Positions 1,641-5,109 of a stretch of DNA of 5,480 nucleotides are shown in pieces. Made by a program: the position numbers and the translations under genes. Numbering within the stretch: position 1 is the first letter of the stretch; every line of letters begins with the position of its first letter. Origin of the DNA: a virus; the IMG/VR virus record IMGVR_UViG_3300045988_017397. One strand, written 5' to 3'. Under the pieces are notes generated by a model that saw nothing but the letters and a program-made list of their open reading frames with translations, was not told where the DNA came from and did not search any database.

Positions 1641-1668
1641 TAGCCGTAGTAGTAGGGGCTGTGGAAAA
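1641..1668 (+). promoter_or_regulatory. Candidate DnaA-trio / GC-cluster / DnaA-box element (basal-unwinding-system-like)
   Basis: The sequence reads TAG CCG TAG TAG TAG (1641-1655), GGGC (1656-1659), TGTGGAAAA (1660-1668). The 9-mer is the reverse complement of TTTTCCACA, which fits TTWTNCACA at 9/9 and TTATCCACA at 8/9. An AT-rich tract (1611-1640) lies on the trio side. Confidence 0.5.
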
Positions 1669-1764
1669 GTTGAAAACCATAAATTTGAAACATAACATCG
1701 TAAAAAATAAGCATATTTCATTGTTGAAAGATTTGTTGAAAACTTGTTGAAATGTTGAAACACT

Positions 1765-1793
1765 TTACCAGACTAAAATCTATTGCGTATAAT
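1765..1793 (+). promoter_or_regulatory. Weak candidate promoter between the two repeat clusters
   Basis: TTACCA (1765-1770, 4/6 to TTGACA), a 17-nt spacer, then a perfect TATAAT (1788-1793). No gene follows within about 230 nt, so the function is uncertain. Confidence 0.25.
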
Positions 1794-1832
1794 GATGTTG
1801 AAAAGTATGTTGAAAATGTTGAAAACCATAAG

Positions 1833-1841
1833 TTTTCCACA
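1833..1841 (+). promoter_or_regulatory. Second DnaA-box match, inverted relative to 1660-1668
   Basis: TTTTCCACA matches TTWTNCACA at 9/9. It is the exact reverse complement of TGTGGAAAA at 1660-1668 and sits 1 nt after the second GTTGAAAACCATAA copy. Confidence 0.5.
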
Positions 1842-3027: not shown

Positions 3028-3496
3028 ATTTCGGAGCGCATACAGCGGGCAGGTAAGGCATACGAGCCTGACCGGCAACGGCCGTGAGCCGGAATATGAG
3101 TACAAGGTAACGGAAGAAGGCCGGGAGCTGGTAAAAACCGGAGAAAAGGACGTCTATGCACTCATCCAGAGCCGTCTGGATGAAACCAAAATCGAAAACA
3201 TCATCAAGCGGGCAACGTATGACCCGACTGCACTGGGCAGTCAGGACTGGCAGACCAGCGAGACGATGACCGATATTTCGGACGCGCCGACAAACTACCA
3301 CGAGTGGTATGGGCGTATCAAAGACGCGGAGGCAGAGTTTGACAAACTGCCCATCGAAGTCAAAAACAAGTGGGACAATGATGTCGAAAAATACATCATG
3401 GCCTATGGAACCCAAGAGTGGGCAGACAAAATGGGCATAGCAAAACAGCAAGCCGAAGCAGAAAAACCGGCTGAAAAAAGTGAGGTGAAAGAATGA
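3020..3496 (+). CDS. VP3: VP3 internal scaffolding protein, 158 aa
   Basis: I chose ATG 3020 (MSKFRSAYSG...), with SD GAGGG (3007-3011) 8 nt upstream, over the ORF-track start at 2858. The N-terminal xxFRSAY motif, the acidic middle and AEFDKLPIEVKNKWDND (the FxxLPxExRxxF-type motif) are typical of gokushovirus VP3. It overlaps the VP5-like stop (ATGAGTAA) and the VP1 start (ATGA). Confidence 0.8.
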   Translation: MSKFRSAYSGQVRHTSLTGNGREPEYEYKVTEEGRELVKTGEKDVYALIQSRLDETKIENIIKRATYDPTALGSQDWQTSETMTDISDAPTNYHEWYGRIKDAEAEFDKLPIEVKNKWDNDVEKYIMAYGTQEWADKMGIAKQQAEAEKPAEKSEVKE

Positions 3497-5109
3497 ACCG
3501 CAACAGTGAATACAACTTTGCGGAAAATCCGCAGGTCGGAGTAAGCCGCAGCCGATTCCAGCGCAACAGCGACAACAAAACGACCTTTAACACGGGCGAC
3601 CTCATCCCTATCTATCTGGACGAGGTGCTACCAGGTGATACACACCAAGTCGATGTTGCGTGTGTGATGCGAATGGCAACACCCATCTTCCCGGTGATGG
3701 ACAACGCCTTTTGCGACTTTTACTTCTTTTTCGTGCCTAACCGCTTACTGTGGGAACACTGGAAGGAGTTTATGGGCGAAAACAAGGAGACCGCATGGAC
3801 ACCTAAAACGGAGTACAGTGTGCCGCAAGTAACGGCACCGACGGGCGGATGGGCAGAAGGTACGCTGGCGGACTATCTAGGTCTGCCTACCAAAATCGAG
3901 GGCATCAGCGTAAGCGCTCTGCCCGGCAGAGCCTACGGTCTCATCTATAACGAATGGTTCAGAAACCAGAACGTGACACAGCCGACACTTGTAGAAGTGA
4001 CGGACGCGACCACGACCGGCAAAAACGACGGCAGCGCTACCAACGACAACGCAATCACGTTGGCAAAGCCTCTCAAGGCAGCAAAGGTGTTTGACTACTA
4101 CACCGGAGCACTCCCTGAGCCTCAGAAAGGCGAGCCAATCACGCTGCCTCTGGGCGGGGCAGCGATGGTACATCTTTACGAAGATAAAAGCCTAAGCAAA
4201 ATAGCGAGAAATGGATACGGATACATCGGAAAAGATGTATTGGACAATACACCATTCACAATGAGCGAAATAGCAACGGATGGCGTCAACGTACCAAACA
4301 AAGTAGACGCATTCACAGGAAACTGGCTGGGGGCAGACCTCAGCAACGTCACCGCAGCTACCATCAACCAGTTACGTCAGGCGTTTCAGATTCAGAAGCT
4401 GCTCGAAAAAGATGCGCGCGGCGGCACAAGATACCGTGAGGTGCTGCGCGAACACTTCGGGGTTATCTCTCCTGACTCTCGTATGCAGATTCCGGAGTAT
4501 CTGGGCGGCTACAGACTGCCTATCAACGTGTCTCAGGTTATCCAGACCTCTTCGAGCGACGACACGAGTCCGCTGGGCAACACAGCGGCGCTAAGTGTTA
4601 CCACGATGAACAAACCCATGTTTACCAAGTCCTTTACGGAACACGGATTTATCATGGGACTCGCAGTGGTACGAACCGACCAAACCTATCAGCAGGGTAT
4701 CGAGCGCATGTGGAGCCGAAAAGGCCGGTATGATTACTACTGGCCGGTACTGGCAAACATCGGCGAACAAGCCATCCTCAACAAAGAAATCTATGCACAG
4801 GGCAACGCAAAGGACGATGAAGCATTCGGCTATCAGGAAGCATGGGCCGACTATCGGTATAAGCCAAGCAAGGTTACCGGCCTGTTCCGAAGCAACGCAC
4901 AACAGAGTCTCGATGCATGGCACTATGCACAGGACTACGACGCGCTGCCTACTCTGAGCACCGCTTGGATGGAACAGGGCGAAACCGAAATGAAACGGAC
5001 TCTTGCGGTACAGTCTCAACCAGACTTTATCGGCGACTTCTACTTCATGAACAAAACAACTCGATGCATGCCGGTCTACAGCATTCCCGGCCTCATCGAT
5101 CATCACTAA
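3493..5109 (+). CDS. VP1: VP1 major capsid protein (Microviridae F-protein fold), 538 aa
   Basis: SD GAGGTGA lies at 3482-3488. Hallmark gokushovirus VP1 blocks are present: RSRFQRNSDNKTTFNTGDLIPIYLDEVLPGDT, FCDFYFFFVPNRLLW, ATINQLRQAFQIQKLLEKDARGGTRYREVLREHFGV and RMQIPEYLGG. The size is typical for the subfamily. Confidence 0.97.
   Translation: MNRNSEYNFAENPQVGVSRSRFQRNSDNKTTFNTGDLIPIYLDEVLPGDTHQVDVACVMRMATPIFPVMDNAFCDFYFFFVPNRLLWEHWKEFMGENKETAWTPKTEYSVPQVTAPTGGWAEGTLADYLGLPTKIEGISVSALPGRAYGLIYNEWFRNQNVTQPTLVEVTDATTTGKNDGSATNDNAITLAKPLKAAKVFDYYTGALPEPQKGEPITLPLGGAAMVHLYEDKSLSKIARNGYGYIGKDVLDNTPFTMSEIATDGVNVPNKVDAFTGNWLGADLSNVTAATINQLRQAFQIQKLLEKDARGGTRYREVLREHFGVISPDSRMQIPEYLGGYRLPINVSQVIQTSSSDDTSPLGNTAALSVTTMNKPMFTKSFTEHGFIMGLAVVRTDQTYQQGIERMWSRKGRYDYYWPVLANIGEQAILNKEIYAQGNAKDDEAFGYQEAWADYRYKPSKVTGLFRSNAQQSLDAWHYAQDYDALPTLSTAWMEQGETEMKRTLAVQSQPDFIGDFYFMNKTTRCMPVYSIPGLIDHH

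Follow-up and report, generated by a model that had tools for sequence, protein, structure and literature searches.

A DnaA-box and DnaA-trio module in the intergenic region of gokushovirus genomes, resembling the unwinding module of bacterial chromosome origins

The stretch of DNA analyzed here (IMG/VR record IMGVR_UViG_3300045988_017397; 5,480 nucleotides, referred to as a whole as the window) was a complete circular gokushovirus genome with a terminal redundancy of 55 nt, and this report concerns an origin-like module of roughly 245 bp (~1609-1853) that harbored DnaA boxes and DnaA-trios and was located in the intergenic region (~420-460 nt) after VP4. The genome displayed the gene order VP2 (wrapping to 543), VP4 (540-1562), intergenic region, small open reading frames (ORFs), ORF5/VP5, VP3 scaffold, and VP1 (3493-5109). 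VP4, an HUH rolling-circle initiator, was the only replication protein encoded, and no iteron-type Rep was present; the four small downstream ORFs matched no known family, and no match tied them to DnaA. The closest GenBank relative was Gokushovirus WZ-2015a from human faeces (accession number KT264798), which was 92% identical to the window. To our knowledge, gokushovirus replication beyond the phiX-like initiator is essentially uncharacterised, and no origin has been defined in the abundant gut lineages.

Along the + strand (5' to 3'), the module was composed of an AT-rich tract, TAG trios, GGGC, tandem boxes TGTGGAAAA/GTTGAAAA, and two arrays of TGTTGAAA(A) weak boxes. Its parts were as follows: (i) the AT-rich tract ATTTATTTTCGCTTATTATATATAACTTGTTG (1609-1640, no strand assigned), occupying the position of a DNA-unwinding element (DUE) distal to the trios and ending in the invariant AACTTGTTG (1632-1640); (ii) the DnaA-trio run TAG CCG TAG TAG TAG (1641-1655, + strand; 5'-TAG-3' equals 3'-GAT-5'), whose complement CTACTACTA bore the 5'-TnnT-3' DnaD recognition pattern; (iii) the GC-rich 4-nt gap GGGC (1656-1659, no strand assigned) separating the trios from the proximal box; (iv) the proximal DnaA box TGTGGAAAA (1660-1668, + strand), with one mismatch to TGTGGATAA, and the abutting tandem second box GTTGAAAAC (1669-1677, + strand), which was at least 90% conserved and, when read as AGTTGAAAA (1668-1677 abutment), had three mismatches in that register; (v) array 2 (1722-1761, + strand), composed of four same-orientation weak boxes TGTTGAAA starting at 1722, 1734, 1745, and 1753 (spacings of 12, 11, and 8 nt); (vi) array 3 (1796-1825, + strand), with three weak boxes of one orientation that start at 1796, 1808, and 1817; (vii) the inverted DnaA box TTTTCCACA (1833-1841, - strand); and (viii) a last direct weak box TGTTGAAAA (1845-1853, + strand). 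The inverted box and the box at 1817-1826 made up a head-to-head pair with the local palindrome TGTTGAAAAC-CATAA-GTTTTCCACA. The spacer between arrays 2 and 3 (1762-1795) also held a promoter-like TTTACC-18-TATAAT at 1764-1793. Two other assignments were considered for the AT-rich tract and rejected: AACTTG at 1632-1637 bore a weak resemblance to a phiX-like nick site (CAACTTG|ATA), and AACTTGTTG also arose at a box-CT-box junction in array 2; a by-eye alignment to Escherichia coli dif, made for a dif/XerCD-like site, gave only ~15/28 matches.

A preliminary description of this DNA had singled out the 9-mers TGTGGAAAA (1660-1668) and TTTTCCACA (1833-1841) as inverted DnaA boxes and had proposed that they pair in the incoming virion DNA. 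The two 9-mers were indeed perfect reverse complements at these coordinates, and the accompanying 14-mer direct repeat GTTGAAAACCATAA, which began with the second tandem box on the left (1669-1682) and at the last array 3 box on the right (1818-1831), was likewise exact. The inverted complementarity reached 11/12 nt (arms 1660-1671 and 1830-1841), and the 14-mer sat within a 25-nt repeat of 88% identity (1662-1686 and 1811-1835). Chance expectations were estimated by simulating the 420-nt intergenic region with a first-order Markov model: an exact 14-mer direct repeat was unlikely (P ~0.006), while a 9-bp inverted repeat was not significant by itself, with 0.92 pairs expected (P(>=1)=0.46). 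Eight exact copies of TGTTGAAA were found, all on the + strand within 1722-1852, against 0.2 expected, and a DnaA box (at most one mismatch) with three TAG trios no more than 16 nt away occurred in 0/20,000 simulated 5.4-kb sequences. Both the 14-mer repeat and the inverted 9-mers thus arose because the region was packed with one iterated motif. The exact 14-mer pair was private to this genome (the second copy in KT264798 matched at 12/14 positions), and, because the boxes are iterated, direct repeats of at least 14 nt were common in the comparison set of 142 distinct related modules (43/142); a double-box unit present in duplicate accounts for the 14-mer repeat.

The module was compared with the chromosome-origin unwinding module of bacteria (BUS; Richardson 2016, 2019; Pelliciari 2021). 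BUS has been defined by a DnaA box with at most two mismatches, a spacer of 0-16 bp, and at least three DnaA-trios with the consensus 3'-GAT-5', where the spacer, which follows the proximal box of a tandem pair, averages 4 bp and is GC-rich (Pelliciari 2021, PMC8287927). Table S1 of PMC8287927 runs 3' to 5', so that the trio strand reads 5'-trios-gap-box-box-3' with boxes as TGTGGATAA; B. subtilis, for instance, has ...TAGTAG-GGCC-TGTGGATT-TGTGGATAA. The order, strand, orientation, and 4-nt gap of the window module matched the Table S1 entries of B. subtilis, S. aureus, L. lactis, and S. elongatus. Element by element, (i) the proximal box TGTGGAAAA had one mismatch, where two to 5'-TTATCCACA-3' (that is, TGTGGATAA on the trio strand) are allowed; (ii) the second box GTTGAAAAC/AGTTGAAAA abutted the first in the same orientation with three mismatches, where four and a distance of 0-3 bp are allowed; (iii) the run at 1641-1655 supplied the at least three consecutive NAN trios 5' of the box, its orientation having been checked against Table S1 and Priestia megaterium oriC; (iv) GGGC at 1656-1659 fell within the 0-16 bp spacer range and had the ~4-bp GC-rich character; and (v) the AT-rich tract 1609-1640 could be aligned to the AT tract in the dnaA-dnaN spacer of P. 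megaterium. The reading of the 9-mers as DnaA boxes, and of the proximal one as placed beside TAG trios in bacterial-origin geometry, was therefore borne out by Table S1 and the P. megaterium spacer. Tandem abutting boxes were shared with B. subtilis, S. aureus, and P. megaterium, and the same-orientation array boxes resembled B. subtilis incC boxes 1-5. The window module differed from BUS in its setting, a 5.4-kb rolling-circle single-stranded DNA (ssDNA) phage, in having mostly weak TGTTGAAAA boxes, and in occurring in either orientation and at two positions. A chromosomal origin typically adjoins dnaA/dnaN, while this module lay between VP4 and small ORFs of a phage; it would work like BUS, yet it is not a chromosome origin.

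Two sequence matches tied the module to chromosomal origins. The segment 1646-1668 GTAGTAGTAGGGGCTGTGGAAAA showed a 23-nt identity with the oriC BUS core of Synechococcus elongatus, whose scaffold was assayed for strand separation by S. elongatus DnaA (Pelliciari 2021, PMC8287927). When 1609-1860 was searched blind by blastn against plasmid records totalling 7.3 Gb, the top match was the P. megaterium dnaA-dnaN spacer, the matched region comprising AT-rich GCTTATTATTTATTATATTTTAAGA (starting GCTTATTAT), TAGTAGTAGTAATAG, GGGC, TGTGGAAA, and TGTGGATAA; this target is the one ~190-bp place of a Bacillota chromosome where such an architecture is expected. The matched record (L300; NZ_CP140268.1, 1-3997) was a 410-kb entry labelled as a P. 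megaterium plasmid that started with dnaA-dnaN-yaaA-recF; by appearance, this is the origin region of a chromosome, or else a chromid, deposited under a plasmid label.

The pattern AACTTGTTGTAGNNGTAGTAGTAG was present in at least 119 IMG/VR contigs, all microvirus-sized, with identities to the window of 32-98% for VP4 and 41-89% for VP1. In a module-oriented alignment, the box columns were at least 90% conserved and the spacers 40-70%, and the trio-to-box gap was 4 nt in 113 of the 142 modules. Boxes held fixed slots, at any one of which TGTTGAAAA, TGTGGAAAA, and perfect TGTGGATAA interchanged between genomes: the columns of array 2 were at least 90% conserved, with TGTGGAAAA or perfect TGTGGATAA occupying its slots in relatives, and the array 3 slots were occupied in relatives by TGTGGAAAA. 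Judged by sequence, the weak repeats are DnaA-box variants; 5'-TGTTGAAAA is itself used by DoriC as the standard DnaA box in some species. When VP1 relatives were gathered regardless of the module, 44/69 contained it. One genome (L260; IMGVR_UViG_3300045988_002246) carried 3' of VP4 a natural deletion, in which the AT-rich tract, trios, and first double box were joined straight to the GC-rich block described below and both box arrays and the inverted box were missing; this suggests that the AT-rich tract, trios, and tandem boxes would be the essential core.

Modular exchange was also observed. Six genomes (L008, L016, L018, L071, L074, and L119) encoded VP4 proteins 96-99% identical to that of the window and harbored another module variant, GGGAGTGTTGAAATGTTGAATAC..., with TGTGGATAA at slot +102, which was elsewhere found in lineages of ~44% VP4 identity; the cassette had therefore been exchanged by recombination. 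In relatives whose VP4 was 97-98% identical, a different module variant lacked both 9-mers. Further variation among relatives included (i) an internal tandem duplication of ~55 nt covering the proximal double box plus spacer (TGTGGAAAAGTTGAAAAGTAATAAATTTTAACGATGAAACGAAAATTAAAAG) at module positions ~+28 to +140 of L038; (ii) non-homologous and usually palindromic sequences (for example, TTCGTCAAAATGACGAA or TGCACAAA...TTTGTGCA) in place of the spacer that separates array 2 from array 3; and (iii) alternating purine-pyrimidine GC tracts like CGCGCACGCGCGCACGCGCG ~20-60 nt 5' of the AT-rich tract in many relatives (e.g., L023, L059, and L062), which had a Z-DNA- or cruciform-prone look, lay beside the unwinding side, and were absent from the window.

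The module was invertible. It lay on the same strand as VP1/VP4 in 92/119 contigs and on the opposite strand in 27/119, with GenBank record KT264800 as a further opposite-orientation example, and it was located after VP4 or, in one 'opposite' clade, between VP2 and VP4. A strand reference was provided by a perfect 15-bp hairpin (1570-1608, + strand; inverted repeat 100% complementary) directly past the VP4 stop, with the conserved loop ATCAAGAAG and followed by TATTTATTTT. A loop (C)TATCAAG(T/A)A with covarying stems was found in 85/93 'same' and four 'opposite' genomes (89 in total), always in coding orientation. In the window, ~24 nt separated the hairpin from the point where the invariant AACTTGTTG begins, with the entire AT-rich tract in between. 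Most genomes had the hairpin at the DUE end of the module and four had it at the array end; in the VP2-VP4 clade it was ~25 nt away. The base composition of the coding strand was alike in the two orientation groups (A 36% and T 17-18% in each), with AT skews of 0.33 versus 0.37 genome-wide and 0.32 versus 0.27 at VP1 third positions, and GC skews at VP1 third positions of -0.17 versus -0.19, without reversal. It follows from the inversion, the fixed hairpin, and the unflipped composition that some viruses have the TAG trios on the packaged strand and other viruses have them on its complement. A packaged strand that flipped together with the cassette, which would rescue a model acting on virion ssDNA, is unlikely in view of the unflipped skews and the hairpin fixed in coding orientation. 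Inversion of this kind is incompatible with a strand-specific role in ssDNA and is what would be expected of a duplex-acting element.

The bracket formed by the 9-mers and 14-mers is probably part of a phage-borne copy of the bacterial chromosome-origin unwinding module, which would direct DnaA-dependent unwinding and helicase loading on the duplex replicative form (RF). On the double-stranded RF, host DnaA would bind the tandem boxes (1660-1677) and, cooperatively, the two arrays of same-orientation low-affinity TGTTGAAA boxes spaced 8-12 nt apart. Starting at the proximal box, a DnaA-ATP oligomer would then cross the GGGC gap, engage the TAG trios on one of the strands, and stretch that strand, so that the adjoining AT-rich tract opens. 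Were the host of Bacillota type, DnaD would be recruited by the TnnT motifs of the complementary CTA strand thus exposed and would in turn deliver the DnaB co-loader together with the DnaI-DnaC helicase complex; B. subtilis DnaD is known to recognise paired 5'-TnnT-3' motifs opposite the trios. The right, inverted 9-mer is a distal DnaA box in opposite orientation; distal boxes of B. subtilis incC work whichever way they face and when placed at a distance, while the proximal pair cannot be turned round. In L002 (MG945157), an inverted box ATTTCCACA was located just 7 nt past the second proximal box and not at the far end, and inverted boxes thus sit at differing places across lineages.

The arrays invited comparison with E. 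coli oriC, in which a same-orientation start-to-start spacing of 8-12 nt is expected for cooperative growth of a DnaA oligomer. Arrays of low-affinity DnaA sites there are said, in work attributed to Rozgaja et al. from 2011, to guide growth of the DnaA-ATP oligomer from high-affinity anchor boxes. The window shared with these arrays the same-orientation 9-mers ~2-3 bp apart (11-12 nt start-to-start) and the presence of better boxes in some slots, whereas the organism group and the box sequence were different and no IHF/Fis sites were identified in the window.

Three roles, in order of preference, may be considered for such a module: most likely, it would start or boost duplex RF replication via host-type helicase loading, possibly in theta mode; its opening might help to melt the adjacent candidate VP4 hairpin origin at 1570-1608, which is a possibility; or it may serve in DnaA titration or sensing. 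An extended form of the first role, in which the RF would be a DnaA-fired minichromosome copied in step with the host and independently of VP4, persisting as a plasmid-like episome in dividing gut bacteria and switching to rolling-circle ssDNA production at virion release, is unlikely.

Several points weigh against a phage-borne unwinding module. DnaA binding and unwinding are predictions from the sequence alone, and it is not evident why a phage that replicates by rolling circle would require a DnaA origin. The proximal box had at least three mismatches to TGTGGATAA in 55/142 modules, so that its affinity may be low, and the weak box TTTTCAACA deviates from the consensus at a position important in E. 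coli. By the criterion used, 25/69 VP1 relatives did not contain the module; some of these were partial contigs, and others (VP1 40-57% identical to the window) had unrelated intergenic regions, so the family can do without the module. The P. megaterium match was marginal by itself (E = 0.06), and a TTGTTGTAGNNGTAGTAGTAG scan of 185,579 bacterial genomes gave no host oriC with the module sequence among the matches listed, which were unrelated low-complexity or coding repeats, the only true module among them being that of a 5.8-kb microvirus contig in a Prevotella metagenome-assembled genome (MAG). The majority of the viral contigs came from one IMG dataset, although GenBank records from several animal hosts agreed with them.

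Among the alternatives, a DnaA sink or sensor, in which boxes on the multicopy RF titrate DnaA and so halt or retime host initiation, or in which the DnaA-ATP level acts through them on nearby phage promoters, with no replication start involved, is rather improbable. It would draw on ~12 boxes per genome that, multiplied by many RF copies, would compete with oriC, and on the candidate promoters within (1764-1793) and just past (1975-2003) the module. Plasmids carrying clusters of DnaA boxes show incompatibility with the origin of B. subtilis, hence the names incA, incB, and incC, and DnaA-titrating loci are represented by datA and the B. subtilis clusters, while DnaA boxes also occur in the P1 oriR, pSC101, F, and RK2 origins. 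The window resembled all of these as a mobile replicon with clustered DnaA boxes that would exploit host DnaA, but those systems add Rep iterons or omit trios, whereas the window held a complete box-trio-DUE unit beside a rolling-circle initiator gene. A titrating locus has boxes without an unwinding element and needs no trios, fixed 4-nt gap, or AT-rich tract, yet the window combined its box cluster with trios and an AT-rich tract that were the best-conserved parts of the module, and these parts (with the tandem boxes) were the sole ones kept in L260. Inversion of the module, moreover, alters its relation to the promoters.

It is very improbable that the TGTTGAAA repeats are iterons for the product of a small phage ORF or for a host factor and that their DnaA-box likeness is coincidental. 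Most repeats were two mismatches off the DnaA consensus, and the four small downstream ORFs without known family could supply such a product; however, the repeat slots interchanged with perfect DnaA boxes, and the box-gap-trio-AT layout matched chromosomal origins, including the 23-nt identity. Iteron origins have direct repeats of ~17-22 bp and their own Rep, while the repeat unit here was a 9-mer DnaA-box variant and the genome encoded VP4, a rolling-circle initiator, and no iteron-type Rep.

The fold put forward in the preliminary description, in which 1660-1668 pairs with 1833-1841 in virion ssDNA so that a duplex DnaA box stands 3' of single-stranded trios and a DnaA primosome assembles at a complementary-strand origin, is extremely improbable. 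Its geometry equalled that of a tailed scaffold known to support DnaA oligomerisation in vitro, in which the boxes are duplex and the trios form a 5' ssDNA tail, and both 9-mers were kept in KT264798 and about nine relatives. When 1560-2030 was folded with DNA parameters, the stem proved possible but was absent from the minimum free energy (MFE) structure: its ensemble probability in this genome was 0.26-0.30 and enforcing it cost only 0.1-1.3 kcal/mol over the MFE, whereas the MFE fold paired the right 9-mer locally in the competing hairpin 1817-1841 (TGTTGAAAAC-CATAA-GTTTTCCACA; probability 0.36-0.42), and the module (1615-1865) was no more structured than shuffled sequence (z = +0.25). Relatives with one 9-mer and no complement to it, which had been named beforehand as refuting the fold, were found: an exact complement of the proximal 9-mer was present in only 9/142 modules, and a canonical proximal box without inverted partner in 43/142; an inverted canonical box was present in 34/142, with a non-complementary proximal partner in 25. 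Uncompensated changes occurred even within the clade of the window, namely AGTGGAAAA in L011, TGTGAAAAA in L271 and L283, and CTTTCCACA in L273. The inverted box was wholly missing in many relatives, its columns (40-60% conserved) being among the least conserved, and the predicted long-range pairing of the proximal box had a median of 0.004, exceeded 0.2 in 9/120 genomes, and never exceeded 0.5. That the two 9-mers can pair follows simply from each of them being a DnaA box. With the module inverted relative to the genes and the strand-fixed hairpin in 27/119 genomes and the composition unflipped, the further claim that the trios are single-stranded on the packaged strand cannot hold in every virus, and the fold as a complementary-strand origin was left unsupported by the unconserved pairing, the favoured local hairpin, and the inversion alike.

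A DnaA-dependent ABC primosome reportedly assembles at an ssDNA hairpin carrying a DnaA box, the 'A site' of R6K/pBR322, as attributed to Masai and Arai. The window could offer a box in a stem via the long-range stem (P ~0.3) or the hairpin 1817-1841 (~0.4), but the A site is compact and strand-specific, while the stem of the window was unconserved (9/142) and the module occurred on both strands (27/119 inverted). Other complementary-strand origins comprise the phiX174 PriA assembly site, the G4 primase hairpin, and the RNA-polymerase-primed single-strand origin (sso) of Gram-positive rolling-circle plasmids; these are likewise intergenic sites in small rolling-circle replicons, but they are strand-specific folded ssDNA, whereas the module was orientation-independent and not unusually structured. 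Use of the local hairpin 1817-1841 itself, with a DnaA box in its stem, as an ABC-primosome-like site (R6K, pBR322) is just as improbable: it was the MFE structure of its segment (probability 0.36-0.42), its palindrome forms on either strand, and a similar one, GTTGAAAAC-TCAA-GTTTTCCACA, in the 'opposite' clade made orientation no obstacle, but it was present in only 34/142 modules, had a T-C mismatch in the stem inside the box, consisted of poorly conserved columns, and was missing in L260.

Elements flanking the module were better candidates than the module for strand-specific ssDNA roles, namely the hairpin 1570-1608 and a GC-rich block (1856-1945, + strand). The complement of the hairpin loop, ACTTGATAG, was similar to the phiX174/pC194 nick motif CTTG|ATA, and the hairpin may serve VP4 as its rolling-circle origin, with the nick possibly on the non-coding strand, or may be just a terminator in view of the TATTTATTTT behind it. 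The GC-rich block was the 3' neighbour of the module and outside it, was 82-97% conserved in 28 genomes, and always lay directly 3' of the module in coding orientation. It contained a 7-bp stem (1894-1900/1927-1933; GTCATGC/GCATGAC) with a double compensatory change in one genome (L030) and without Rfam match, which makes the block a candidate for an element that acts strand-specifically as ssDNA or RNA; an Rfam scan of the whole window with E up to 1 matched no family.

Further downstream lay a consensus sigma-70 promoter TTGACA-17-TATAAT with a TG extension (1975-2003, + strand; 12/12 positions), the predicted driver of the downstream small ORFs. The 61-aa ORF 3' of it (2029-2214) was co-conserved with the intergenic region in KT264790. 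Matches of 30-38 nt of this promoter to annotated promoters of LUZ24-like Pseudomonas phages were presumably due to convergence on the consensus, the matches being explained solely by the consensus promoter at 1974-2003. The consensus promoter and the strong Shine-Dalgarno sites would fit a Bacillota-like host. The contig found in the bacterial genome scan (L239; CALBJK010000280.1) was a complete 5.8-kb microvirus contig with the module, binned in an 'uncultured Prevotella' MAG; because the phage sigma-70-type promoter and strong Shine-Dalgarno sites fit Bacillota better, this binning is probably spurious, and the bin is no credible host evidence.

A full-text literature search of incomplete coverage gave no report of a DnaA-trio/DnaA-box module in Microviridae or gokushoviruses, and no phage-borne BUS was apparent from titles and abstracts on DnaA-trios and phages. 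The best reading of the locus is an invertible, horizontally shuffled DnaA unwinding cassette of chromosomal type in a rolling-circle ssDNA phage. The module was kept almost base for base despite divergence of the viral proteins to 35-50% identity, exchanged between lineages, and tolerated both ways round, properties that point to a rolling-circle ssDNA phage hijacking the host initiator directly. More than 140 natural BUS variants could inform how far boxes, gap, and trios tolerate change, and the module would offer a possible handle on host range via box/trio preference as well as a candidate route to episomal persistence or interference with host initiation. If the RF were indeed a DnaA-fired minichromosome, integrase-less gokushoviruses would have a lysogeny-like lifestyle, which could explain their long-term persistence in the gut together with the nucleotide-level conservation and shuffling of the cassette.

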